The notes beneath the pieces are model-generated. The model was given only the letters and a program-made list of their open reading frames with translations, was not told the origin of the DNA and did no database searches. Shown here in pieces: positions 4,092-47,440 of a DNA stretch of 64,000 bases. Source of the DNA: Candidatus Nomurabacteria bacterium (GTDB lineage Bacteria > Patescibacteriota > Minisyncoccia > Phycocordibacterales > UBA918); the NCBI GenBank assembly GCA_020632135.1, contig JACKGC010000001.1, forward strand, positions 581,124 to 645,123, in the 5' to 3' direction. The translations under genes were made by a program, and so were the position numbers. Every line of letters starts with the position of its first letter. The stretch's first letter is position 1.

Positions 4092-4859
4092 ATGCGATTA
4101 TCGGTCCTTGCGAGTTCACTTTTTCAGTCTCTGACCATCACCGTTTTGGTAGTGTCTGTGATCAACGTAAGTTTGGCTCAGGTGCGCACCAGTACTAACT
4201 ACCAGTTACAAAGCGATAGTATCAATGTTGGTGGGGGCTATTCCTCATCAACCCTGTATCAGCAGGAGAGTACGGTGGGCGAGATCGCTACTGGTCCGGC
4301 AGACAGTACGAGTTATGCGTTACGCGCTGGCTACCAACAGATGCAAGAGGTGTACGTAAGTCTCACAACGACCGGCAATGTGATCATGTCACCAGACCTG
4401 CCTGGACTCACTGGCGGTACCTCAAATGGTTCGAGCACCTTCACGGTTATTACTGATAGTCCTTCGGGGTACAGACTCACGATCGAGGCTGAGAATGATC
4501 CAGCGATGCAAAGTGGTGGTAATACCATTGCTGATTATGACGAAGGGGTTGAAACTGACTATTCATTCATTACTGGTGGTAGTGATGCACATTTTGGGTA
4601 CACACCGGAAGGGGATGATATCGTACAAGCGTTTAAGGATGATGGTGCGGGCACGTGTAATGTTGATGTGCAGGACTCGAGTTTGGCATGCTGGGCTGGC
4701 CTTTCTACCACCCCGGTGGTAATGGCTGAGGGTGTGGGGTCGAATCATCCAAATGGCGCCACCACTACCGTGCATTTTCGGGTTGGTATCGGAAGTGGGG
4801 CGGGAGTGATCGCTGGCGTGTATACTGCGACCACTACTGTGACCGCCTTACCGTTATAA
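4092..4859 (+). CDS. Small secreted protein, paralog of 2305..3009
   Basis: Signal peptide (LTITVLVVSVINVSLAQV). Same conserved blocks as 2305..3009. Starts 2 nt after the upstream stop. Confidence 0.65.
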   Translation: MRLSVLASSLFQSLTITVLVVSVINVSLAQVRTSTNYQLQSDSINVGGGYSSSTLYQQESTVGEIATGPADSTSYALRAGYQQMQEVYVSLTTTGNVIMSPDLPGLTGGTSNGSSTFTVITDSPSGYRLTIEAENDPAMQSGGNTIADYDEGVETDYSFITGGSDAHFGYTPEGDDIVQAFKDDGAGTCNVDVQDSSLACWAGLSTTPVVMAEGVGSNHPNGATTTVHFRVGIGSGAGVIAGVYTATTTVTALPL

Positions 4860-18334: not shown

Positions 18335-18407
18335 GCCAGCTTAGCTCAGTTGGTAGAGCAACGGATTTGTAACCCGTAGGTCATCAGTTCGAATCTGATA
18401 GCTGGCT
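18335..18407 (+). tRNA. tRNA-Thr (anticodon UGU), no encoded CCA
   Basis: Hand-folded cloverleaf: acceptor GCCAGCT/AGCTGGC, D arm GCTC-AGTTGGTA-GAGC, anticodon loop TT-TGT-AA, T arm ATCAG-TTCGAAT-CTGAT, discriminator T. The last anticodon-stem pair is A.C. Confidence 0.85.
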
Positions 18408-18426
18408 CGCAGCTTTTTACAAACCT

Positions 18427-18579
18427 GCCAGCTTAGTTTAGTTGGGAGAATTAAAACAGTCTGGGGGACTGTTTTAAAGATTTGTAACCCGTAGGTCATT
18501 AGTTCGCATCACAAGAGTATTTCCGAAATTATGCACGAGCAAGCTCTCGCTAATTTCTAGGTCACTCTGATAGCTGGCT
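18427..18579 (+). pseudogene. tRNA-Thr-like tandem copy interrupted by two hairpin insertions
   Basis: Keeps acceptor halves, anticodon loop plus 3' anticodon stem, variable region and T stem. About 29 nt replace the D-stem 3'/anticodon-stem 5' strand, and about 56 nt are inserted after the T loop. Same 3' trailer as the first copy. Confidence 0.6.
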
Positions 18580-18605
18580 CGCAGCTTTTTACGTTGACGG
18601 AAGGT

Positions 18606-34035: not shown

Positions 34036-35787
34036 TTATACGTTTACTTCCGCAGATAATTTCACCAGCAATTCCTCCAACGTCAACGTTTCTGAGTGTT
34101 CTGTATCACGGCTTTCTAGTGTGACTGATCTTGCTTCAGCTTCTTTATCACCAATGACGATGAAGTAGGGGAGTTTGGCTTGTTTGGCGGCGCGGATCTT
34201 CTTGCCCATACTATCCTTGCTTGAGTCGAGTTCGACTCGGAAGGCGGCGGCGCGAAGCGCCGCCGCCACTTCCGCTGCGTACGCGTTGTGCGCATCAGCG
34301 ACCGGAATGATGGCCATCTGCACCGGCGAGAGCCAGAGCGGGAACTTGCCCGCAAAGTGCTCGATCATCACAGCCATAAAGCGTTCGAGCGAACCAGCGA
34401 TCGCTCGATGGATCATGACTGGAGTTTGCTTTTGTCCTTCACTGTCGGTGTACTCGAGGCCAAAGCGGCTTGGCATGACGAAGTCGAGCTGGGCGGTACC
34501 AAGTTGTCGTTCGCGACCGATGGCGTCATAGAACATGAAGTCGATCTTTGGTCCGTAGAAGGCTGCTTCACCTTCGACGCGCTTGTATGGCAGGTCGAGT
34601 CTTTTGGCTACTGCTTCGAGAGTACCCTCTGCTTTGTCCCAGACAGCATCATCGCCCAAGCGACCGCTAGGGTCATTTGGGTCGCTTACCGAAAGTGAGA
34701 CCCAGAATTTGCCGTCTTCGTACATGCCAAGGGCAGTGTAGAATTCCTTGATCACATTGACGATATTCTCAACTTCTTGCTCGATCTGATCGACGGTACA
34801 AAATACGTGTCCATCATCTTGCGTGATGCTGCGCACGCGGCTGAGGCCAATGAGCTCACCGGCCTGCTCGTCGCGGTAGACCATAGTGGTCTCGGCGTAG
34901 CGGATCGGCAGCTCTTTGTATGAGCGTGGCTGCGCGTCAAAGATCTGCGTGTGATGCGGGCAGTTCATCGGCTTCATGACAAACTCTGCGTCAGACTGAC
35001 CTTTCACTTTGAAGAGTTCGTCGCCAAACTTTTCCCAGTGGCCAGAGGTCTTGTACAGATCGCTCTTGGTGATGTGTGGAATGGTCACTTTCTGGTAGCC
35101 GTACTTAGCTTGGATCTGCATGATCTTTTCCACGATCAAGTCACGCATGAGGGTGCCCTTGGGGGTAAAGAGGGGGAGGCCAGGGCCGACCAAATCAGAG
35201 AAGGTAAAGAGGTCGAGTTCTTTGCCGAGCTTGCGATGATCGCGAGCCTTGGCTTCTGCTTGCTGTGTTTCGTAGGCTTCGAGTTCTTCTGTAGTGTCAA
35301 AGGCGAGACCGTAGAGGCGGGTGAGCATCGGGTTTTTCTCGTCACCGCGCCAATAGGCACCGGCGATCTTGTCGAGCTTGAAGGCATCGGCATTGATGTC
35401 TTTGTTAGGGTGCTCACAGTGGCCGCCACGGCAAAGGTCGGTAAACCCACCGCAGGTGTAGAGGGTGATCGGTTCGCCTTTGGCTTCGATCTCGCTGATG
35501 AGCTCAAGTTTGAATTGGTTGCCGGGGAAAGCAGCTCGCGCTTCATCAGCAGTCACTTCCTTGTGCGTGAACTCGGTCCACTTATTGAGCAGTTTCTTCA
35601 TGTCTTTCTGCAGGCCTTTGAGGTCGGCGTCGCCGGGAGCTTCGCCGGCAGAGAAGTCGATGTCATAGTAGAAGCCGTTGTCGACCGCTGGGCCGAGGGT
35701 GAGCTTGGCGTGTGGGTATTTTTGTAGTACTGCCGCGGCCAAGAGGTGGGCGAGCGTGTGTCGTTTGTGTTCGAGTGATTGTTCCAT
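34036..35787 (-). CDS. thrS: Threonyl-tRNA synthetase (no N-terminal TGS domain)
   Basis: Start at ATG 35787 (MEQSLEHKRHTLAHLLA, the editing-domain HxxxH). Class II motifs FRDEQAGELIGLSRVRSITQDDGH and GTAQLDF, plus a C-terminal anticodon-binding domain. Confidence 0.93.
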   Translation of the reverse strand: MEQSLEHKRHTLAHLLAAAVLQKYPHAKLTLGPAVDNGFYYDIDFSAGEAPGDADLKGLQKDMKKLLNKWTEFTHKEVTADEARAAFPGNQFKLELISEIEAKGEPITLYTCGGFTDLCRGGHCEHPNKDINADAFKLDKIAGAYWRGDEKNPMLTRLYGLAFDTTEELEAYETQQAEAKARDHRKLGKELDLFTFSDLVGPGLPLFTPKGTLMRDLIVEKIMQIQAKYGYQKVTIPHITKSDLYKTSGHWEKFGDELFKVKGQSDAEFVMKPMNCPHHTQIFDAQPRSYKELPIRYAETTMVYRDEQAGELIGLSRVRSITQDDGHVFCTVDQIEQEVENIVNVIKEFYTALGMYEDGKFWVSLSVSDPNDPSGRLGDDAVWDKAEGTLEAVAKRLDLPYKRVEGEAAFYGPKIDFMFYDAIGRERQLGTAQLDFVMPSRFGLEYTDSEGQKQTPVMIHRAIAGSLERFMAVMIEHFAGKFPLWLSPVQMAIIPVADAHNAYAAEVAAALRAAAFRVELDSSKDSMGKKIRAAKQAKLPYFIVIGDKEAEARSVTLESRDTEHSETLTLEELLVKLSAEVNV

Positions 35788-35983
35788 GATTTGATTTAGT
35801 TGCGATTGCACCTTCCTCACTTCTTCCAGACACGCGTCCTCGCCTCCGGCGGGCTCGGCGCTATGCTCGCTCGATTTCGCACTATCGTGCGACCGAGCAA
35901 ATCGAGCTGCGCAATGTCTGTCAAAAGTTAGGAAAGTGCAATCTTCCCGTGGTCGTACTGACGACCCAGGTGGTTAATAAAAG

Positions 35984-36175
35984 AAAAACGTCCGAGTAGA
36001 TACACGAAGTTCGTGTGCCTACTCGGACGATCTTGATCGCGGTTCCACCGAGTTTCCACTTCAGTATGCTGAAGGGCGCTTCATTAGTACAGATTAGAAG
36101 GGAGGTGAATCCTCATGACGGCTCGCTGCGCTCGCCGTCCAGCGGTTGGTGGCCGCCACAATCTCTGTATGTACA
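35984..36175 (-). promoter_or_regulatory. T-box riboswitch leader of thrS
   Basis: The minus strand reads ...AAACUCGGUGGAACCGCG (T-box sequence; plus strand 36038..36049), followed by terminator CGUCCGAGUAG...CUACUCGGACG plus UUUUU. AGAGA element near the 5' end. Candidate -35 TTGACA at 36203..36198 and -10 TAGGAT at 36181..36176. Confidence 0.75.
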
Positions 36176-36204
36176 ATCCTAGCGCGCTTCAAAATATTGT
36201 CAAA

Positions 36205-36234
36205 CAAAAAGTCACGCCAAATAAGGCGTGACTT
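36205..36234 (-). terminator. Rho-independent terminator after ORF 36254..36703
   Basis: The minus strand reads AGTCACGCC-ttattt-GGCGTGACT followed by TTTTT. Confidence 0.8.
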
Positions 36235-36253
36235 TGCATCTTGATGTTTGATC

Positions 36254-36703
36254 CTACAGCCCCTTAAGTTTGGTAAGTAGGCCGGGCACTTCTCTCCATA
36301 AGAACTGGTCCCTCTTAATCCTATATGCTTGTCTTTTTCTTCCCCACTCTGCTTCGCTTTTGACAATCTCAGCTTCGGAGATTGCTGTAAGATCATCGAT
36401 TTTTCCATCGAAATCGAAATCGATAACAAAGCGAAGTTGCTTTTCAATGCCATTCTCACCGGAATAGTGCTTTCCTTGAGAGGCATCTTTGACAAGCTGT
36501 AGATAGTCTTTAACTACAGAGAGCGTTTCTTCAACCAAAAATTCACCGGTACAGATTTTGGGGTAACTAGGCACAAAGAAACAATCTTTGGCTTTGAAAG
36601 TCGCGACAGTCTCAAGGGTAGACTGCTGAGCTTCGCGCAACTGTTCAATTTGAGGGAGGATTTCTTTCTGAAATCTTTCAGAAATATTGATGCCATCTAG
36701 CAT
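36254..36703 (-). CDS. Hypothetical protein (orphan, cassette-like position)
   Basis: 149 aa from the ATG at 36703 (MLDGINISERF). No recognised motif. Own terminator. Lies just beyond the outermost dnaE 3'-end copy. Confidence 0.5.
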   Translation of the reverse strand: MLDGINISERFQKEILPQIEQLREAQQSTLETVATFKAKDCFFVPSYPKICTGEFLVEETLSVVKDYLQLVKDASQGKHYSGENGIEKQLRFVIDFDFDGKIDDLTAISEAEIVKSEAEWGRKRQAYRIKRDQFLWREVPGLLTKLKGL

Positions 36704-36774
36704 TTGACGTCTCCTGAGTTGAGATGGAACAGGGTTTTGCTGAAAGCAAACTTTACTACTAAATGTTAGATATG

Positions 36775-36925
36775 TCAATTTTTTGTCACCGGCTCCCCGA
36801 CCAGCTCATCATTCCCGAGCTTCTTCACTTTATCAATGAGAATTGACGGCTCGTCGTTGCGGACATTGAACTTGCCCTTGATCACCACACAAGTGTCGGG
36901 TTGGAGGAGTTCGTTTTTGTCTGTC
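36775..36925 (-). pseudogene. Relic copy of the dnaE 3' end (copy C)
   Basis: Encodes ..ELLQPDTCVVIKGKFNVRNDEPSILIDKVKKLGNDELVGEPVTKN*. dnaE ends ..ELLVPGTCVAIKGKFNLRNDEPSILIDKVKKLGNDELVGEPISNQ*. By hand count, 106 of 138 nt are identical. Confidence 0.85.
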
Positions 36926-37005
36926 CAGGTCAAGTCTGCAGCTTTTTGGTATACTTTTGTTATATGGAAACATTCAAACAAAATCCTGATGATGAGCAGA
37001 AGGGT

Positions 37006-37485
37006 ATGAGTAACAAAGCAAAAGCAATTGGAGCAGCTGCGCTGGTTGGTATGTCGGCGACTGCTGATGCTGGTTCGCAAGAAAATACAGACGCGATTGA
37101 TAGTGGTGAGGGGACTGTAGAAATGAATCAAGATCCGAGGATACAGGTCGTTGAAGAACAGGGTTTTTTGTATGGTGGTGAGTCAGATGAAATGTTGCAC
37201 GAACTCACGCCATTATTTGTGCAAGAGCAAATCGACCGAATCATGGCTCACCCGCTTACTGAAGTAATGTCAGGAGGTGAGGTGACAGTGAAGTCAGTCA
37301 TGGCTGAGCCAGGCGGAACAGCCTTTGTGACGCTTTCAGCAGATGGTCAGGATATTGCTGTAAATCTTTCCCGCTTCACTTCTACGGAAAATGGACAAGT
37401 TTCAATAAAGCCTCCAGCTGTTGGGGGTTCTCTTATCATTGAGCTTGAAAATAATGGAATTATAAAATTTTCACAGCCAAACTAG
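37006..37485 (+). CDS. Hypothetical secreted protein (cassette gene)
   Basis: Signal peptide MSNKAKAIGAAALVGMSATADA. Alternative starts at 36964 and 36901. Own terminator at 37509..37535. Confidence 0.55.
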   Translation: MSNKAKAIGAAALVGMSATADAGSQENTDAIDSGEGTVEMNQDPRIQVVEEQGFLYGGESDEMLHELTPLFVQEQIDRIMAHPLTEVMSGGEVTVKSVMAEPGGTAFVTLSADGQDIAVNLSRFTSTENGQVSIKPPAVGGSLIIELENNGIIKFSQPN

Positions 37486-37508
37486 TACTGGTAATTTAGC
37501 TTCAAATT

Positions 37509-37535
37509 AAAAACAGCACGAAGGTGCTGTTTTTT
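37509..37535 (+). terminator. Rho-independent terminator
   Basis: AAAAACAGCAC-gaag-GTGCTGTTTTTT. Confidence 0.85.
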
Positions 37536-37559
37536 GGGTGTGATTACTTAGGATGATTA

Positions 37560-37628
37560 TTAGGTGATGGGCTCTCCAACCAACTCATCATTTTCCAGCC
37601 GCTTCACTTTATCTATCAAAATACTAGG
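37560..37628 (-). pseudogene. Relic copy of the dnaE 3' end (copy B, 23 codons)
   Basis: Encodes PSILIDKVKRLENDELVGEPIT*, matching the last 22 residues of DnaE. An in-frame TGA lies just upstream. Confidence 0.8.
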
Positions 37629-37659
37629 TCCTTTGGTTCAAAACTACTTGACACGAAGT

Positions 37660-37679
37660 GTACACTTTAGGTACACTTT
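37660..37679 (+). promoter_or_regulatory. Direct repeat GTACACTTT x2 (candidate Phd/YefM operator) within the TA promoter
   Basis: GTACACTTT at 37660..37668 and 37671..37679 (11-bp register), downstream of TTGACA (37648..37653). The ATG at 37684 has no SD. Confidence 0.5.
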
Positions 37680-37683
37680 TAGT

Positions 37684-37932
37684 ATGAATACAAAATTTGT
37701 TGGGGTTAAAGAGTTTCGCCAGAATATTTCTGACTATGCCAAAAAAGCTCAGCAAGGGAAGAGTCGTTTTGTGGTGATGAATCGAAACAAGCCTTTGTTT
37801 GAAATCAAGCCGTTTAAAAATGGCGAGTTTACTGATGAGTTTGTAGCGAGTGTGCGACAAGGTGAAGCCGACATGGCCGCCGGCCGAGTATACACCGAAG
37901 CTGAAGTAATGGAGAAATTAGGGATTGCATGA
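37684..37932 (+). CDS. Phd/YefM-family antitoxin
   Basis: 82 aa from the ATG at 37684. VGVKEFRQNISDYAKKAQQGKSRFVVMNRNKPLFEI is the typical Phd/YefM N-terminal fold signature. Confidence 0.75.
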   Translation: MNTKFVGVKEFRQNISDYAKKAQQGKSRFVVMNRNKPLFEIKPFKNGEFTDEFVASVRQGEADMAAGRVYTEAEVMEKLGIA

Positions 37933-38204
37933 GTCGGTCAGTATCGGTGCTGTATACCCAGCAATCTCTGAAAGAACTGCGCGCAATAGATCAGTCTACT
38001 GCAGGTCGGATAATAAAAAAGATTTCAAGTAACGCAGCAATGACCGATCCTTTGACGCGAGCAAAAGCGCTACAGGGAAATTTTTCGGGAATGTACCGTT
38101 ATCGCATTGGTGACTATCGGGCGGTGTTTATCATCGACGAGGATAACATTATCACCTTGATAACAATTGTGACAATTAAACACCGTAAAGATGTGTATCG
38201 GTAA
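37929..38204 (+). CDS. RelE/ParE-family toxin
   Basis: ATGA overlap with the antitoxin. LQGNFSGMYRYRIGDYRAVFIIDEDNIITLITIVTIKHRKDVY is a classic RelE/ParE C-terminal pattern. Confidence 0.8.
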   Translation: MSRSVSVLYTQQSLKELRAIDQSTAGRIIKKISSNAAMTDPLTRAKALQGNFSGMYRYRIGDYRAVFIIDEDNIITLITIVTIKHRKDVYR

Positions 38205-38205
38205 A

Positions 38206-41200
38206 TCACTGGTTTGAAATTGGCTCGCCAACCAACTCATCATTCCCTAGCTTTTTCACCTTATCAATCAAAATACTTGGCTCGTCGTTACGGAGGTTGA
38301 ACTTGCCTTTGATGGCCACACAGGTGCCGGGCACGAGCAGCTCGCGGTTGTCGTGGTAGGTTTCCGGGAAGGCAACCGTTTCGATGCTGTCTTGCTGGTC
38401 GGCGAGTTTGATGAAGGCCATGCGGTCGCCTTTTTTGGTGAGAAGCTCCTTTACGCTCTCGATCAAGCCGGTGGTGACGACCGTCACGCCCTGGTAGCTT
38501 TTCTTCACCTGCTCGATGCGCGGCCGTTTTTCTACCTCGGCTGCGACCGCATCAAGTGGGTGGCCGGACACGTACACGCCAAGGAGCTCTTTTTCCCACA
38601 GCAGCATTTGGCCAACGGGTGCAGGGTCAGCGGGAGTAAGTACGAGACCGTTTACTTCCGCCATGCCGCCAAAGAGTGAGTCTTGGCCGGTTTCTTTGCC
38701 GGCGATGTGTTCGCGGTTGTACGCGAGGAGGTTGTCGAGATTGGCAAAGAGAATGCCGCGCTCCTCAAACTTATCAAATGCACCAGTCATGATGAGGGCT
38801 TCGAGGGATTTTTTGTTGAGACCGCGGTCGTGAATACGAGTAAGGAAATCTTGCATTGATGCAAACGGCCCATTTTTCTTTCGTTCAGCGATGATAACAT
38901 CAGCGATACCTTCACCGAAGTTTTTGATGGTAGTGAGTCCGAAGCGGATGGTGTTCTTGTCTGGTACCACTGAGAAGTCGGAAAAAGATTCGTTGATGTC
39001 TGGCGGCAGCACCGGCACGCCCATACGCTCACATTCGTGGATGATCTCAGAGATCTTTTCAGTGTCACCAGAGTCAGCGGTGAGTACGGCTGACATGTAC
39101 TCGACGGGGTAGTTGGCCTTCATGTAGGCGGTCTGGTAGGCGACGCGTCCGTACGATGCTGCGTGCGCTTTGTTGAATCCGTACGCCGCAAACGGCTCAA
39201 TGAGTTTCCAGAGCTGTTCAGACTTCTGCTCGGATAGGCCGTGCTCAATAAAGCCAGCAAAGAGCTTTTTCTTCTGCTCTTCCATGAGCTCAGGGATCTT
39301 CTTACCCATCGCTTTACGCAACATGTCAGCCTCGAGCCAGCTGTAGCCAGCGAGCTCAATTGAGATCATCATCACGTCATCTTGGTAGGTGATTACCCCG
39401 TACGAGCGCTCAAGAATAGGCTCAAGGCGGGGGTCGAGGTAGGAAACCAGTGCCGGGTTATGCTTGCGCTCGATGTAGGTAGGGATCATTTCCATCGGGC
39501 CTGGGCGGTAGAGGGCCACCATCGCGTTGATGTCGTGAATGGTCGAAGGCTTGAGCTGTTTGAGAAAGGCGGTCATGCCGGAGCCGTTGAGCTGGAAGAG
39601 CCCCATGGTCTGTCCAGCGGCGAGCATGGCGAAAGTTTTCTCGTCATCAAGGGGGATGTTTTCAATATCGATATCGACGTTGTGGATCTTCTTCACACGC
39701 TTCACCGCGTCGGCGAGGATGGCGAGGTTCTTGATGCCAAGGAAGTCAAACTTCAGGAGGCCAACGCCATCCTCGCCGACGCTCTTCATTTCATACTGGG
39801 TAATGGCTTTGCCGGTCTTGGAGTCGATCTGGATCGGCACATAATTATTGAGCGGCTGGGGAGCGATCACGACACCAGCCGCGTGCACCCCAAGGTGTCG
39901 GACGCGGCCTTCGATCTGCTTAGCAAGGTCGATCACCTCGCGGCTTTCTGCGTCTTTCTTGTATAGCTCAGCGAGGTCGGGTTCGATCTCGAGCGCCTTG
40001 GCGATGGTCATTGGGAAGCCTTGGCTGCCCATCGGAATGAGCTTAGCGATGGTGTCGCCGGTGGAGTAGCTGTGGCCAAGGGCCCGGGCCACGTCGCGCA
40101 CGGCAGCGCGCGCCATCATGGTACCGAAGGTGCCGATCTGGGCGACATTGTCTTGGCCGTACTTCTCGCGCGCGTAGGCAATGATCTCGTCGCGACGATT
40201 ATCAGCAAAGTCCATGTCGATATCAGGGGCGGAAGGACGCTCAGGGTTGAGAAAACGTTCGAAGGGGAGGCGGTACTCGAGCGGGTTTACGTTCGTAATG
40301 CCGAGTACGTAGGTGCTGAGCGAGCCCGCCACCGATCCTCGAATGGTGGTGTAGATACCGCGCTCGCGCGCTTCGCGCAGAAGGTCGCCTACGGCGAGGA
40401 AGTAGGTAGCGTAGCCCTTCATCTTGATGACGTCGAGTTCAAAGGTGAGGCGCTGTTTGAGTTCTTCATTTTCCGGATCGAGCCCGCGCCAAGTCACACC
40501 TTCCCAGGCGCGGTGGTGGAGTTCGTCGTCAGACGTACGACCACTTTCGATGATGTAGTTAGGGAACATCCAGGCTTCTTGGCCGAGTGTGATCTTGACG
40601 TTGCACTCGTTGGCGATCTTTACTGTGTTCTCGATCGCCTCAGGCACATCCTTAAACCACTCTTTCATTTCCGCTTGGGTCTTGAAAGAAAAATCCTCCG
40701 CGGTGTCATGGTCAGCGGTGGTGTCTACGACACCACCGCTCCCGATCTTCACCATCGTCTCACGCGCGAGACGGTCTCCAGGCCTCATATAGTAGATGTC
40801 TTGCGCTGCGACTAGTGGCGTTTTGGTGTCCGTAGCCAGCTGCTTTATCTGATCTTGCACTTCTTGATGGCCAAAGATCTCTGGGTGGTGCGAAATTTCC
40901 AGGTAGCAGTCAGCACCAAAGACGCGTTTGTACCAGTCGAGGCGCTCGGCGGCTTTGTCGGGGTTGTGGTCTTTAAGGGCCTGGGCGACTTCGCCGGCAA
41001 AGGAAGGGATGATACAGATGAGTCCCTCGTGATGTTTTTCTAGGAGCTCGTCGTCAATGCGCGGGCGGTAGTAGAAACCATCAATGTTGGAACGGGTGAC
41101 CATCTCGATCAGGTTTTGGTAGCCAAAAAAAGTTTTAGAAAGGAGCACCAGTCGAGACCGTGGTTTGTCGATATTTACTTCCTTATCAAAGCGCGTGCGC

Positions 41201-41448
41201 GGTGCAAGAAAAGCGTCGAGGCCGATGATCGGCTTGACGTCTTCATAGGTGCAGGCTTTGTAGAAATCAATTGCCCCGTAGAGCGCGCCGGCGTCGGTGA
41301 TGGCGAGTGCGTCCTGGCCATCGGCCTTGGCGGCCTTCACGAGTTCCTTCGGGGTGGGTACGGCATTGAGGAGGGAGTACATTGAATGTACGTGGAGGTG
41401 TACGAAGTCGGCCTTGATGGGTGGGTAGGATTGGTCGGTTTCTGCCAT
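38206..41448 (-). CDS. dnaE: DNA polymerase III alpha subunit
   Basis: N-terminal PHP domain (FVHLHVHSMYSLL), palm/fingers blocks (PDIDMDF, LLKFDFLGIKNL, GLFQLNGSGM), C-terminal OB fold. 1080 aa, no intein. Confidence 0.95.
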   Translation of the reverse strand: MAETDQSYPPIKADFVHLHVHSMYSLLNAVPTPKELVKAAKADGQDALAITDAGALYGAIDFYKACTYEDVKPIIGLDAFLAPRTRFDKEVNIDKPRSRLVLLSKTFFGYQNLIEMVTRSNIDGFYYRPRIDDELLEKHHEGLICIIPSFAGEVAQALKDHNPDKAAERLDWYKRVFGADCYLEISHHPEIFGHQEVQDQIKQLATDTKTPLVAAQDIYYMRPGDRLARETMVKIGSGGVVDTTADHDTAEDFSFKTQAEMKEWFKDVPEAIENTVKIANECNVKITLGQEAWMFPNYIIESGRTSDDELHHRAWEGVTWRGLDPENEELKQRLTFELDVIKMKGYATYFLAVGDLLREARERGIYTTIRGSVAGSLSTYVLGITNVNPLEYRLPFERFLNPERPSAPDIDMDFADNRRDEIIAYAREKYGQDNVAQIGTFGTMMARAAVRDVARALGHSYSTGDTIAKLIPMGSQGFPMTIAKALEIEPDLAELYKKDAESREVIDLAKQIEGRVRHLGVHAAGVVIAPQPLNNYVPIQIDSKTGKAITQYEMKSVGEDGVGLLKFDFLGIKNLAILADAVKRVKKIHNVDIDIENIPLDDEKTFAMLAAGQTMGLFQLNGSGMTAFLKQLKPSTIHDINAMVALYRPGPMEMIPTYIERKHNPALVSYLDPRLEPILERSYGVITYQDDVMMISIELAGYSWLEADMLRKAMGKKIPELMEEQKKKLFAGFIEHGLSEQKSEQLWKLIEPFAAYGFNKAHAASYGRVAYQTAYMKANYPVEYMSAVLTADSGDTEKISEIIHECERMGVPVLPPDINESFSDFSVVPDKNTIRFGLTTIKNFGEGIADVIIAERKKNGPFASMQDFLTRIHDRGLNKKSLEALIMTGAFDKFEERGILFANLDNLLAYNREHIAGKETGQDSLFGGMAEVNGLVLTPADPAPVGQMLLWEKELLGVYVSGHPLDAVAAEVEKRPRIEQVKKSYQGVTVVTTGLIESVKELLTKKGDRMAFIKLADQQDSIETVAFPETYHDNRELLVPGTCVAIKGKFNLRNDEPSILIDKVKKLGNDELVGEPISNQ

Positions 41449-41481
41449 GGTGGGGGAATTATAGCAGAAATCGCTCAGAGC

Positions 41482-41607
41482 AGCCCAGCGGCGTGGTTGT
41501 CTGACTCAGCGTCCTCGCCTTCCTGTTTTCATGGTCGGACTGGGCGTCCTCCCTGAAAACCAAGTCAGTCTGCGGGATGCTTCGCTAGACAACCACGCCG
41601 CTGGGCT
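41482..41607. repeat. Long imperfect hairpin closed by a 21-bp perfect inverted repeat, in the dnaE 5' region
   Basis: AGCCCAGCGGCGTGGTTGTCT (41482..41502) pairs with AGACAACCACGCCGCTGGGCT (41587..41607). The 84-nt interior has further partial pairing. Confidence 0.7.
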
Positions 41608-41689
41608 TTCGTTCCCGGTCAGTCAGCTGGACCGTGTCACTTCTTTAAAACGATATTCTTGCAATGCTGTCTGGGGGATATTTCTCAAC

Positions 41690-41727
41690 AGAAAAACCGT
41701 CCAGCAGAACGGTTTTCTGTTGGACGG
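41690..41727 (-). terminator. Rho-independent terminator after ORF 41732..42112
   Basis: The minus strand reads CCGTCCAACAGAA-aaccg-TTCTGCTGGACGG followed by TTTTT. Confidence 0.8.
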
Positions 41728-41731
41728 TTGG

Positions 41732-42112
41732 TTAGGTCTGGTGCCAGGTTACTTCGAGGTTATAAATTAACCTTTTGTTACCTACTTGAAGTCTGTCGTC
41801 TACATCATAAATGTACCACCTTGGTTTCGGTTCAGATTGGTTTTTGCCGAAACAGCCGACCTTTAGACATCTCACTGCCGGATTTGTTGACAGTTCGGGT
41901 ATAGTACCACTTTTGAGGCGTAGGTAAGGTCCGAATTCACCATCACCATCGTCAAATGTCATGTCCACCTTCATCACGGCTACACTCGGGTAGTCTTCGT
42001 GGTTCATTATCAGGGTTACCGATAATCCACGCGCAACCATAACTGCTAGTTGGTCTACAGATTCGACTTCAAGGCCAGTTTCGTTTAGTAGCTCAATTAG
42101 AGTCTGTGCCAT
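41732..42112 (-). CDS. Hypothetical protein
   Basis: 126 aa from the ATG at 42112, preceded by AGGAG 9 nt upstream. No recognised motif. Confidence 0.55.
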   Translation of the reverse strand: MAQTLIELLNETGLEVESVDQLAVMVARGLSVTLIMNHEDYPSVAVMKVDMTFDDGDGEFGPYLRLKSGTIPELSTNPAVRCLKVGCFGKNQSEPKPRWYIYDVDDRLQVGNKRLIYNLEVTWHQT

Positions 42113-42195
42113 TGAACTTCTCCTGGGAAGGGTGCAAAAACTTATTTTATAATACATTAATTTTCATATAAAGTCAAATTTGCTATACTACCCAC

Positions 42196-42234
42196 ATGAA
42201 ATCGAAGTGGCTGGTGGGATTGGATGAGGCAGGT
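42196..42234 (+). pseudogene. Relic copy of the rnhB 5' end (13 codons)
   Basis: ATG AAA TCG AAG TGG CTG GTG GGA TTG GAT GAG GCA GGT encodes MKSKWLVGLDEAG. The functional start is MSKFLVGIDEAGRG at 42354. The frame then runs into unrelated sequence and stops at 42369. Confidence 0.7.
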
Positions 42235-42353
42235 GAGAAAGCCTGGGAGGCTTTCGCAAGACCTTGCCTGGTATTTTCTGAATACCTGGAAGAAAATATT
42301 GACAAGGTGTACAGCTCCTGTAAGGAGAGGGCCGCTTTTAGTATTTCTTGCTT

Positions 42354-45482: not shown

Positions 45483-46193
45483 ATGAAACGACCACAGCAG
45501 AGCGGCTTCACGCTGGTTGAGATCTTGGTTGCTATTACGGTGGCACTCATCTTGGTTGGTGTGTTGGCGGCCAATTACTTTGATAGTCTCAAGGTGTCAC
45601 GGGACGCTAAACGCCAAGCTGATCTGCGTAATTTACAGGCGGCTATTGAGCTCTACAAGCTAGAGTACGGGAGGTATCCAGCGGGGTGTAATGGTGCTGG
45701 TGTCTGGTCGGGTCAACTGGGAACAGATTTTGAGTGCAATCACGCGGGTACCTATGCGGGATATGCCGGGACGGGTCAGTATATCGTCAAGCACGATCCG
45801 GCAGACTCGAGCATCCAGGACTTTGCCCCTGGGTTTATTCCAGTGCTGCCGGTTGACCCGAGGTTAAATGGTGATAATTCTGGGTACGTGTATCTGGCTA
45901 ATGCGGACGGCACGGTCTATAAGCTCGTAGCGTATCGGACAGTCGAGGAAATGAGTGTGGTCGATGGTTCTTCGGACCATATCGATGATGACCTCCGTGA
46001 CTTTAAGCTGTGTGAGACAGAGCACTGGTGGACCGCTGACACTTCCATGTTGTGTTACGACGATCTGCCTTGTTATTACACTCAATCATACTACCCAATC
46101 TCATATGCAGTATGGGGTGGTTATGCCGATATGCCGACCGCTGCTCAGGTCACTACATACACCGAGAATATCGTCTGCAGCATTCCAAACTAG
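45483..46193 (+). CDS. Type IV pilin-like protein (prepilin N-terminal methylation motif)
   Basis: MKRPQQSG/FTLVEILVAITVALILVGVLA, i.e. a class III signal G/FTL(V/I)E plus a hydrophobic helix. Confidence 0.8.
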   Translation: MKRPQQSGFTLVEILVAITVALILVGVLAANYFDSLKVSRDAKRQADLRNLQAAIELYKLEYGRYPAGCNGAGVWSGQLGTDFECNHAGTYAGYAGTGQYIVKHDPADSSIQDFAPGFIPVLPVDPRLNGDNSGYVYLANADGTVYKLVAYRTVEEMSVVDGSSDHIDDDLRDFKLCETEHWWTADTSMLCYDDLPCYYTQSYYPISYAVWGGYADMPTAAQVTTYTENIVCSIPN

Positions 46194-46242
46194 CTGTGTA
46201 CACGCCCATTATTAAGTCTGCTCAGGTGCTATCATAAAAAGT

Positions 46243-46806
46243 ATGTGGAAACAAACTAGCCAACGAGGCTTCACTCTGATCGAGATCATGGTAGTGATCA
46301 CGATCATTGGTATTCTAGCTGCTGCTGCTTTTGCTAATTTCAATGATGCGCGGAAACAGGCTCGGGACGCCCAACGAATCCAAGAGCTAAAGATGATCGC
46401 CGAGGCGTTTGAACTGATGTTGATCGATCATGGCGGAACGGTCGACTGTGGTGCTGGCGTTAAAATTGAAGGGGGGGTTGATGAGATCAATGTTGGTACA
46501 GGTGCTGCGACAAATTGCAATGATCTAGATTTGATCCAGGACACGATCTCTGACTATTTCCAACAGACACCACACGATCCACTGGGGCCGGGTGATGATC
46601 GCTACTTCTACTACTTCGACTATCATGGTTGTGGTGGTGGTGAACCAAATAAGTGGTTGGTGTATGGTGGTATGGAACTTGAGGGTAGCTCCAACCGTGA
46701 TCAGGTGTGTAGTGCTACTGGTAGTAACAATCAGGGTTACTATTTCGAAGATGGCTCAAGCAATGCTACATACCCCTACGTGATCTCAATTATGGAAGAG
46801 GATTAA
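46243..46806 (+). CDS. Type IV pilin-like protein
   Basis: QRG/FTLIEIMVVITIIGILAAAAF. Confidence 0.8.
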   Translation: MWKQTSQRGFTLIEIMVVITIIGILAAAAFANFNDARKQARDAQRIQELKMIAEAFELMLIDHGGTVDCGAGVKIEGGVDEINVGTGAATNCNDLDLIQDTISDYFQQTPHDPLGPGDDRYFYYFDYHGCGGGEPNKWLVYGGMELEGSSNRDQVCSATGSNNQGYYFEDGSSNATYPYVISIMEED

Positions 46807-46825
46807 CAATTTGTATTGACCCATC

Positions 46826-47440
46826 ATGATGACATTCTTCGCTAAGCACAAAACAGAAAAAGGTTTTTCTCTCATTGAATTACTGGTGGTGATAGCCATT
46901 ATTGGTATCTTGGCAACGATCCTGAGTGCAAACTTCAATAAATCAAAAGACAAAGCTACTAACAAAGCGCTGCGGAGTGAGTTGCGTGAGGTACAGCTCG
47001 CACTCGAGCTCTATAAAGCCCAGAATGGGGAGTACCCAGGCGTTCCTAACACAGCCTGTCGACAAACCGGAAGTGACTACCTCAGTGCAAGTAGTCGGGA
47101 TTGTGGTGTTATTGCCTACATTGGAGATGATTCAAATAATGACTTTATCCCTGAGTTCATCGGGTCGCTCCCCACGCATCAGGATTCACGCAATAGTAAT
47201 TGTGATATCGAATACATTGTGGCTGATGACGCCAGCTGGTACAAACTCACTGCGATCCGGTGTCTAGCCGGGGTGGACGATGAAGAAGATGATGATGCTA
47301 TACAGCCTGAGAATGAATTTGCGCGTTGTATCTATAACTCTCCATTGTCGGACTGTAGTCACTGCGATTCAGGGTATGTTGCTGACGCTGATTTTTATGA
47401 GTCTGTCGCGGTGTACAGTGTTGGTGGTCAGTGTCGATAG
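46826..47440 (+). CDS. Type IV pilin-like protein
   Basis: EKG/FSLIELLVVIAIIGILATIL, with several Cys in the C-terminal globular part. Confidence 0.8.
   Translation: MMTFFAKHKTEKGFSLIELLVVIAIIGILATILSANFNKSKDKATNKALRSELREVQLALELYKAQNGEYPGVPNTACRQTGSDYLSASSRDCGVIAYIGDDSNNDFIPEFIGSLPTHQDSRNSNCDIEYIVADDASWYKLTAIRCLAGVDDEEDDDAIQPENEFARCIYNSPLSDCSHCDSGYVADADFYESVAVYSVGGQCR

Follow-up and report, generated by a model that had tools for sequence, protein, structure and literature searches.

Stacked dnaE gene ends between dnaE and thrS in a Nomurabacteria genome: probable scars of recombination in a variable gene slot

How does an intact gene come to be followed by two further copies of its own 3′ end, each with foreign-looking genes behind it? 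The question is raised by a stretch of 64,000 nucleotides from Candidatus Nomurabacteria bacterium (GenBank assembly GCA_020632135.1, contig JACKGC010000001.1, positions 581,124 to 645,123), hereafter the window, in which dnaE, the gene of the alpha subunit of DNA polymerase III, is separated from thrS, the gene of threonyl-tRNA synthetase, by two truncated dnaE ends, a toxin-antitoxin (TA) pair and two orphan genes (Table 1). An earlier note, made from the letters alone, had likened the arrangement to genomic islands at tRNA and transfer-messenger RNA (tmRNA) genes, with small cassettes integrating repeatedly at the dnaE 3′ end and each bringing a replacement gene end. The analysis described here leads to a different answer, namely that three alleles of the dnaE–thrS slot, originating from diverged relatives, were probably stacked by recombination that took hold in a single conserved flank, the opposite end being closed by an illegitimate join or a single crossover.

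The functional dnaE end (copy A) and the two relics, B and C, resemble one another far beyond chance, with self-BLAST of the window giving E = 1.3e-24 for A against C, 5.9e-10 for A against B and 4.5e-5 for B against C, and mutual identities of 73–82% at the nucleotide level on the aligned segments. Coordinates and self-BLAST agree with the earlier note that two relics of the dnaE 3′ end, both in frame, lie downstream of the gene, and the hand count made there for the distal relic C (106 of 138 nt identical to the functional end over 36775..36912, translation ELLQPDTCVVIKGKFNVRNDEPSILIDKVKKLGNDELVGEPVTKN and stop) proved exact; repeat finding extends this relic to position 36921, giving 147 nt at 76% identity. 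Relic B, translated as PSILIDKVKRLENDELVGEPIT and stop, is likewise in frame and matches the functional end at 49 of 60 nt. Every copy has retained its own stop codon, as had been noticed before, TGA in relic C and TAA in relic B, and past the stop of relic C a few bases are like those found behind the dnaE stop of relatives, as judged by alignment with the stop–promoter junctions of the related loci L002 and L020. Beyond these copies, the only other sizeable direct repeats in the 64 kb are one within the large surface-protein gene and one at a tRNA-Thr gene.

The manner in which the copies differ is informative about their origin. Between A and C, the differences at codon positions 1, 2 and 3 number 8, 4 and 20, corresponding to 16 synonymous and 8 non-synonymous codon changes, and this preponderance of synonymous, third-position change indicates that the copies evolved in a working gene under protein-level selection and not by silent decay in place. 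The dnaE ends of the relatives L002, L003, L020 and L004 differ from one another and from the window about as much as A, B and C do among themselves, and the functional dnaE end nearest to relic C is that of L179 (101 of 123 nt, and 54 of 60 over the last 20 codons). The C-terminal tail NDELVGEP is common to A, B and C, and among the relatives it was encountered only in L002, L003, L171 and L179, L020 having the variant NDEMIGEP; at the nucleotide level, the well-conserved stretch in all three copies reads AATGATGAG(T/C)TGGT(T/C)GGnGAGCC. The relics are apparently pieces of dnaE alleles from related lineages, not in-situ duplicates, in agreement with the idea of the note that every unit brought its own dnaE end. 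Their starts differ, about 49 codons before the stop in C and 22 in B, and the relics of two other loci, L044 and L132, begin elsewhere, such that four relics have four start codons. Repeat finding disclosed neither inverted repeats nor attC- or dif-like symmetry in the repeats, and even at a permissive threshold there was no Rfam match overlapping them, the only match being the T-box-like thrS leader, which lies outside.

The neighbourhood was compared among 160 related Patescibacteria loci, obtained by scanning genomes and metagenome contigs with the DnaE C-terminus (L numbers designate related loci throughout); distinct intervals numbered 93, and 137 loci could be tested for relics. Most of the 160 share the synteny rnhB–dnaE–thrS–large surface protein gene, and the gap between dnaE and thrS ranges from 61 to 2629 nt, with a median of 690, over the 93 distinct Paceibacteria intervals, in which 68 cargo open reading frames (ORFs) of at least 70 amino acids (aa) make up 52 families, of which 46 have a single member. 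The dnaE–thrS space is a hypervariable gene slot across the Paceibacteria/Kaiserbacteria clade, each lineage having its own small gene or genes, and the insertion hotspot claimed in the note is borne out at this scale. The single sizeable cargo family (≈125–146 aa) is present in 8 of the 93 intervals, namely L005 (3314..3697), L040 (8994..9434), L042 (9666..10082), L121, L127, L128, L130 and L142. L002 and L020, which are the closest relatives, have only 1–3 nt between the dnaE stop and the start of the thrS promoter with its leader (window 36205..35975); BLASTN matches of this right flank were obtained with L002, L003, L004, L020 and other relatives, and homology resumes at 36204–36206. From the empty site in L002 and L020 and from the point at which homology resumes, it follows that 36206..38205 of the window (2.0 kb) is inserted DNA, and the terminator hairpin at 36208..36235 constitutes the final piece of the inserted block. 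A comparison of this interval in relatives, as the note had proposed, shows an empty slot in L002, L020 and L131. The thrS leader, found at the same position in many Paceibacteria loci, is T-box-like: it contains a GGUGGAACCGCG motif and a terminator (35984..36034), and its promoter reads TTGACA-16-TAGGAT; its score against Rfam RF00230 (26.3 bits, E = 0.003) lies under the gathering score of 93, and standard annotation therefore misses it.

Relics of the dnaE end are confined to the window, L044 and L132 among the 137 testable loci, each of which was searched with its own dnaE end, and systematic self-comparison revealed direct flank repeats in 5 of the 93 intervals. What these few loci contain bears directly on the question, for the duplicated piece does not always come from dnaE. 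The dnaE of L132 is 99.9% identical to that of its insert-free sister L131, which has the plain order dnaE–leader–thrS. L132 tracks L131 to thrS codon 29 and then enters a convergent gene for 332 aa (orf332), followed by a 22-codon dnaE-end relic, orf142 and a second copy of the leader promoter, 83% identical; the block of relic and orf142 matches the arrangement of the functional dnaE end and orf142 in L044. In L171, the dnaE stop is followed by a relic of ≈100 nt of the 5′ part of the leader, the TA pair and then the real leader. In L180 (600..1790) and L179 (1730..2450), three tandem thrS promoters bracket a homologue of the orphan 149-aa gene (orf149) and a gene for a membrane-like protein of 78 aa; the promoter copies of L180 read TTGACAATATTTT...GCGCGCTAGGAT, each then followed by the hairpin CCCTAGGCAAGACCTAGGG, and the first two are without ≈55 nt of leader between promoter and hairpin. 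The relics of the thrS flank in L171, L180 and L132 imply that the dnaE end is no privileged target, and that whichever flank took part leaves a truncated copy behind.

Some candidates for further relics did not withstand inspection. A protein search with the C-terminal 200 aa of DnaE yielded for the most part short pieces from contig edges; P0081 and P0065, short DnaE C-terminal proteins encoded on long contigs and considered as possible large relics, proved to be frameshifted dnaE genes, and the split dnaE ORFs of L172 (1676..4742) and L173 (3458..6678) were rejected as probable frameshift errors of assembly.

The inserted block can be rationalized as three units, of which unit 1 would comprise dnaE end A and the ParE/Phd pair, unit 2 dnaE end B, a terminator and the 159-aa gene, and unit 3 dnaE end C, the 149-aa gene and its terminator, after which the ancestral thrS promoter and leader would follow. 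Units 1 and 3 occur singly beside a functional dnaE end in other lineages. On sequence criteria, the pair in unit 1 is a type II toxin-antitoxin system (Phd/YefM with ParE/RelE), with a small, overlapping antitoxin gene upstream (4 nt in common, 37929..37932) and a toxin of the ParE/RelE fold, which is called RelE/StbE family in one source and matched by the Pfam profile ParE_toxin. A promoter-like site (TTGACA-18-TACACT, 37648..37677, from a promoter scan) and a direct repeat GTACAC(T)TT (GTACACTT), taken as a putative operator, precede phd; the repeat is kept in L171, as is the TA gene pair itself. The homology between window and L171 ends at 37647, within the segment 37640..37683 that forms the right end of a TA unit of 560 nt, and the unit is ≈75% identical in the two, equal to the identity of their dnaE and thrS. 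The two nearest ParE homologues, 64% (L171) and 54% (L174–L177) identical, both lie between dnaE and thrS and converge on dnaE; one further homologue (53%) is found at another location. The three TA-bearing lineages are not sisters on the N-terminal 780 aa of DnaE, and their toxin–dnaE junctions differ, the window having 1 nt between the two stop codons, L171 a spacer of 107 nt that includes a leader relic, and L174 an overlap of 38 nt. This convergent overlap of toxin gene and dnaE, at 4239..4276 of L174 and present also in L175–L177, means that transcription of the TA pair would run antisense into the dnaE 3′ end.

Neither orphan protein has a Pfam match. For the 159-aa protein, whose N-terminus looks signal-peptide-like by inspection and is put forward only as a putative signal, no homologue except itself was found among 5.8 billion proteins, so that its source lineage appears to be unsampled. 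The hairpin at 37510..37535 between relic B and this gene, which escaped a simple terminator scan and was found by RNA folding, is likely a bidirectional terminator. For the 149-aa protein, a search of 1.84 billion representatives gave no more than four homologues, all distant; one of these (32% identity) is encoded downstream of dnaE in L179 and L180, comparatively close relatives. None of the four cargo genes of the window was present among the related loci from the scans with the DnaE C-terminus. On these grounds, the earlier description of the units as self-contained stands, the TA pair having its promoter-like site and putative operator, and the 159-aa gene a hairpin with U-run; the orphan gene after the last copy is likewise confirmed as an ORF. 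The idea of small roaming cassettes had to be abandoned, as the units are what occupies this slot in other lineages (L171 and L174–L177; L179 and L180).

Table 1. Features of the dnaE–thrS region, in coordinates of the 64-kb window; dnaE, both relics, orf149 and thrS lie on the minus strand, the TA pair and the 159-aa gene on the plus strand.
Feature	Position	Strand	Basis
dnaE, DNA polymerase III alpha subunit (1080 aa, intact)	38206..41448	-	ORF; Pfam PHP, DNA_pol3_alpha, finger, HHH_6 and OB
Copy A, functional dnaE 3′ end, reference copy of the repeat	38206..38352	-	Repeat finding (family D1/D2), alignment
Toxin gene, ParE/RelE family (91 aa), convergent on dnaE	37929..38204	+	Pfam ParE_toxin, 40.3 bits (cut-off 23)
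Antitoxin gene, Phd/YefM-like (82 aa)	37684..37932	+	Pfam PhdYeFM_antitox, 26.1 bits, under the cut-off of 29.8
Promoter-like site of the TA pair and putative operator	37640..37683	+	Promoter scan, sequence
Relic B, last 22 codons and stop, apparently of a diverged dnaE allele	37560..37628	-	In-frame alignment, self-BLAST
Hairpin AAAAACAGCAC-GAAG-GTGCTGTTTTTT, T-runs in both directions	37510..37535		RNA fold, -22.7 kcal/mol, z = -3.86
Orphan gene (159 aa)	37006..37485	+	ORF; no Pfam match
Relic C, last ≈49 codons and stop, apparently of another diverged dnaE allele	36775..36921	-	Alignment, repeat finding
Orphan gene orf149 (149 aa), on the strand of dnaE and thrS	36254..36703	-	ORF; no Pfam match
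Intrinsic-terminator-like hairpin after orf149	36208..36235	-	Terminator scan, 11-bp stem and T-run
Ancestral right flank: thrS promoter (TTGACA-16-TAGGAT) and divergent T-box-like leader with terminator	35975..36205	-	BLASTN, promoter scan, Rfam
thrS, threonyl-tRNA synthetase, right flank gene of the slot	34036..35820	-	Pfam tRNA-synt_2b, HGTP_anticodon, tRNA_SAD

A sequence of events that would produce such a locus may be envisaged as follows. DNA of a related lineage would enter the cell, probably by natural transformation, and undergo homologous recombination in one of the conserved flanks (in the window most likely within the 3′ portion of dnaE), while the far end of the incoming piece would be joined illegitimately, i.e. 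by homology-facilitated illegitimate recombination (HFIR); alternatively, the fragment might be circularised and taken up in a single crossover. The incoming fragment would bring a new working dnaE end together with its cargo, and the old end, truncated and silent, would be shunted downstream along with the cargo behind it. A slot allele would in this manner be added beside the resident one instead of replacing it, a dedicated recombinase or attachment (att) site would be unneeded, and at least two such events in the window would lead to three stacked units. The dnaE gene itself may have kept a trace of the last import. Over aa 20–800 of DnaE, the window is about equidistant from all relatives (81–86.5%, the nearest being L004), and over aa 800–1099 it is 89% identical to L002 (84% over aa 20–800), most other relatives dropping to 67–78%; maximum chi-square breakpoints fall at aa ≈770–885 with permutation p ≤ 0.007, in protein-level triplet tests of a fast-evolving region. 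The last ≈200–300 dnaE codons appear to have an L002-like affinity, which fits the import of a 3′ segment together with the proximal unit and is regarded as supportive, not decisive. A mosaic in thrS, which would point to an anchor on that side, gave no clear signal.

Several other explanations have to be weighed. In a sequence derived from metagenomes, a collapse or chimeric join of co-existing strains comes to mind, the more so as several contigs of the population break at 36172 and 40219; independent assemblies (L164–L166) end at the same points, twice at 36172 in the thrS leader and twice at 40219 inside dnaE, and these shared ends may reflect co-existing strain variants. The arrangement itself is contained in nine contigs from nine samples, produced by different assemblers (six Logan runs, two assemblies of the European Nucleotide Archive and the NCBI metagenome-assembled genome (MAG) GCA_020428785.1), which span all junctions at 100% or 99.9% identity. 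With independent assemblies, and with the longest exact word between any two copies, 12–17 nt, shorter than assembler k-mers, a chimera of the k-mer graph is not credible, and the artefact that the note had named as a possible objection can be given practically no weight. Another view would have the repeats arise by tandem duplication in situ, with divergence and later insertion of genes, or persist for a function, as RNA element, regulatory site or silent gene-conversion cassettes. The intact reading frames and stops of both relics would suit this view, which is nevertheless highly improbable, considering that 20 of the 32 differences are at third codon positions, that the copies are no closer to each other than to the genes of other species, that Rfam finds nothing over the repeats and that neither the closest relatives nor ≈97% of the loci have relics. 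A conserved RNA element, also raised in the note, is at variance with L002 and L020, which have nothing at this place. A rival close to the proposal of the note is site-specific integration, in which small integrase-less cassettes (satellites) would have an attP with a replacement dnaE 3′ end and would be inserted by a tyrosine or serine recombinase encoded elsewhere, in the manner of tRNA and tmRNA islands, cargo-only tycheposon-like elements or Xer-dependent modules. Direct repeats of a gene 3′ end that bracket self-contained units with their own stops, an intact dnaE and a stretch conserved in all three copies are what such a process would leave, and recombinases were looked for only within 64 kb of the genome. 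On the other hand, relic lengths of 49 and 22 codons, with others in L044 and L132, leave no common crossover point or core; in L171, L180 and L132 it is the opposite flank whose relics bracket the cassettes; a dnaE relic is present in about 3 of 137 loci, though most have inserts; the conserved stretch is the coding tail NDELVGEP, shared with the functional dnaE of L002, L003, L171 and L179; the repeats are without inverted-repeat or attC-like structure; and the units reside in this slot in other lineages and were not met as elements at further loci. Moreover, no integrase, transposase or resolvase family of Pfam was detected among the ≈47 ORFs of the window (E ≤ 1e-5, in one scan E ≤ 0.01), in keeping with the note, the search having been confined to these 64 kb with the rest of the genome unsearched. 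Site-specific integration at the dnaE end is, on balance, distinctly unlikely, and of the island-like reading the hotspot, the self-contained units and their own gene ends stand.

Very unlikely, too, is the more far-reaching notion that the dnaE tail (…NDELVGEP) and the thrS promoter are recognition sites of an unrecognised cassette-exchange system of Paceibacteria, trans-acting or independent of a recombinase; if it were true, this system would amount to an integron-like platform on a housekeeping gene, loading small genes while regenerating the end of an essential gene. A somewhat different matter is the polarity of the events. It is conceivable, though unlikely, that the relics were imported together with their cargo on fragments anchored in thrS or its leader, in which case the junction of dnaE and TA pair would be native and the dnaE end would never have been displaced. 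Three lineages that are not sisters have the TA pair directly beside dnaE, which suggests that the two have long been associated, the events in L132 and L171 left relics on the thrS side, and relic C with orf149 resembles the arrangement of the L179 type. Set against this are the apparently L002-like, discordant 3′ part of the window dnaE, which fits a dnaE-anchored import at least for the last event, the lack of a mosaic pattern in thrS, and the TA–dnaE junctions, which differ to such an extent that the association must have been re-made more than once.

Stacking of slot alleles by flank-anchored recombination, preferred here over these alternatives, has itself to contend with several observations that weigh against it. 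The mosaic signal in dnaE exists at the protein level only, in the faster-evolving portion of the gene, and part of it (L002 versus L003) may be due to recombination in L003 and not in the window. No donor genome for unit 2 was found, no relative closer than 90% aa identity in DnaE and none with the 159-aa gene is among the 160 loci, and the TA relatives are only 54–64% identical; with no close donors, no junction can be compared with both parents. The nine contigs include none without a unit and none in an intermediate or polymorphic state. In experiments HFIR occurs only rarely, whereas the window would call for two or three such events, one stacked on the other. Finally, this genome is compatible with either direction of the events, displacement on the dnaE side or import of relic and cargo on the thrS side. 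How the DNA entered, in what order the events came, which flank anchored each of them, and whether HFIR or a circular single crossover took place, we infer from the arrangement as it stands today.

How the locus relates to known systems may be considered next. For Rhs genes, C-terminal displacement has been described (Jackson et al. 2009, PMC2935791), in which incoming DNA recombines in the conserved part of the gene and the incumbent end is shunted downstream; the authors proposed a single crossover by way of a circular intermediate and invoked no dedicated recombinase. As in Rhs loci, an intact gene is followed here by dissociated 3′ fragments of variable length from exogenous alleles, each with downstream cargo. 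In arrays of effector and immunity genes of V. cholerae's type VI secretion system (T6SS), HFIR has been proposed (Kirchberger et al. 2017, PMC5361080), a process for which these authors cite experimental demonstrations in Acinetobacter, S. pneumoniae and P. stutzeri. With these arrays the window would share one upstream homologous anchor and a downstream illegitimate join; in the arrays, insertions push back older modules including the old effector 3′ end. In contrast to both Rhs and T6SS loci, the gene is an essential replicative polymerase, whose C-terminus is no polymorphic toxin, scars come from both flanks (the thrS promoter or leader in relatives), and the host belongs to the Patescibacteria. 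Unlike the cognate immunity genes of Rhs loci, the cargo consists of orphans and a TA pair without functional link to the gene, and unlike in T6SS arrays, nothing points to a selective logic of the kind by which immunity genes are retained, and the events took place between species-level relatives ≈20% diverged.

The minimal mobile elements of Neisseria, associated with Saunders and Snyder, reportedly consist of different whole-gene cassettes that occupy the space between two conserved genes depending on the strain; they are said to lack mobility genes and to be exchanged by transformation and flank homology, normally in a clean double crossover without duplicated gene ends. Conserved flank genes, different whole-gene contents among relatives and the lack of mobility genes are features in common with the present slot (93 intervals, 52 families), which departs from them by its stacked alleles with flank relics and by a hotspot that spans a class-level clade and not one genus. 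Islands at tRNA and tmRNA genes and tycheposon satellites depend on an integrase and a fixed core site; in these systems, tandem partial gene 3′ ends delimit the units, and the gene stays functional by means of replacement ends. Direct 3′-end repeats flanking units and an intact dnaE are found here as well, whereas three of four defining features failed, namely the fixed core, the recombinase (as searched for in the window) and single-target specificity. Integron cassettes differ in that the repeats here are without attC-type inverted repeats and no integrase was detected in the window. Taken together, the locus looks like a new example of a known recombination footprint, not like a new type of mobile element.

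The interest of the locus lies in its host. Patescibacteria, also called candidate phyla radiation (CPR), have almost all remained uncultivated, and their gene exchange is largely inferred; stacked alleles with truncated flank copies preserve, in a few genomes, the order and parentage of past recombination, and the locus may be considered a readable natural record. The pattern is the expected trace of transformation and one-sided homologous recombination. It is relevant here that com genes are conserved across CPR and that Saccharibacteria are naturally transformable, as established by experiment (PMC10633639). At this slot one can ask whether Paceibacteria, too, have their gene content shaped by natural competence, which has been demonstrated to date in Saccharibacteria alone. 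For annotators, it carries the caveat that, where CPR MAGs show short in-frame ORFs of gene ends or duplicated promoters past conserved genes, these can be scars of recombination and not assembly errors or att sites.

A few further features of the window deserve mention. At 45483..47440, three consecutive genes with the N_methyl motif of type IV pilins or pseudopilins adjoin a gene of the SMC family and are possibly part of a pilus and DNA-uptake apparatus. The other side of dnaE (41449..42347) is variable, too: an orphan gene for 141 aa (41732..42157) between rnhB and dnaE is absent in all relatives, L171 and L174 have different small ORFs there, and an imperfect palindrome of 126 nt (41482..41607), 72% self-complementary, lies just upstream of the dnaE start. 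Directly downstream of the single tRNA-Thr(TGT) gene (18335..18408), within the segment 18335..18600, there is a broken second copy, interrupted by two short inserts, with a 5′ part from ≈18427, an anticodon/T-arm portion (18479..18510) 94% identical to 18364..18395, and a 3′ end with trailer (18566..18592) identical to 18394..18420 at 27 of 27 positions. ARAGORN calls only the first gene, and the broken copy may be a flank-copy scar of the same kind as those beside dnaE, or else a decaying tandem duplicate.

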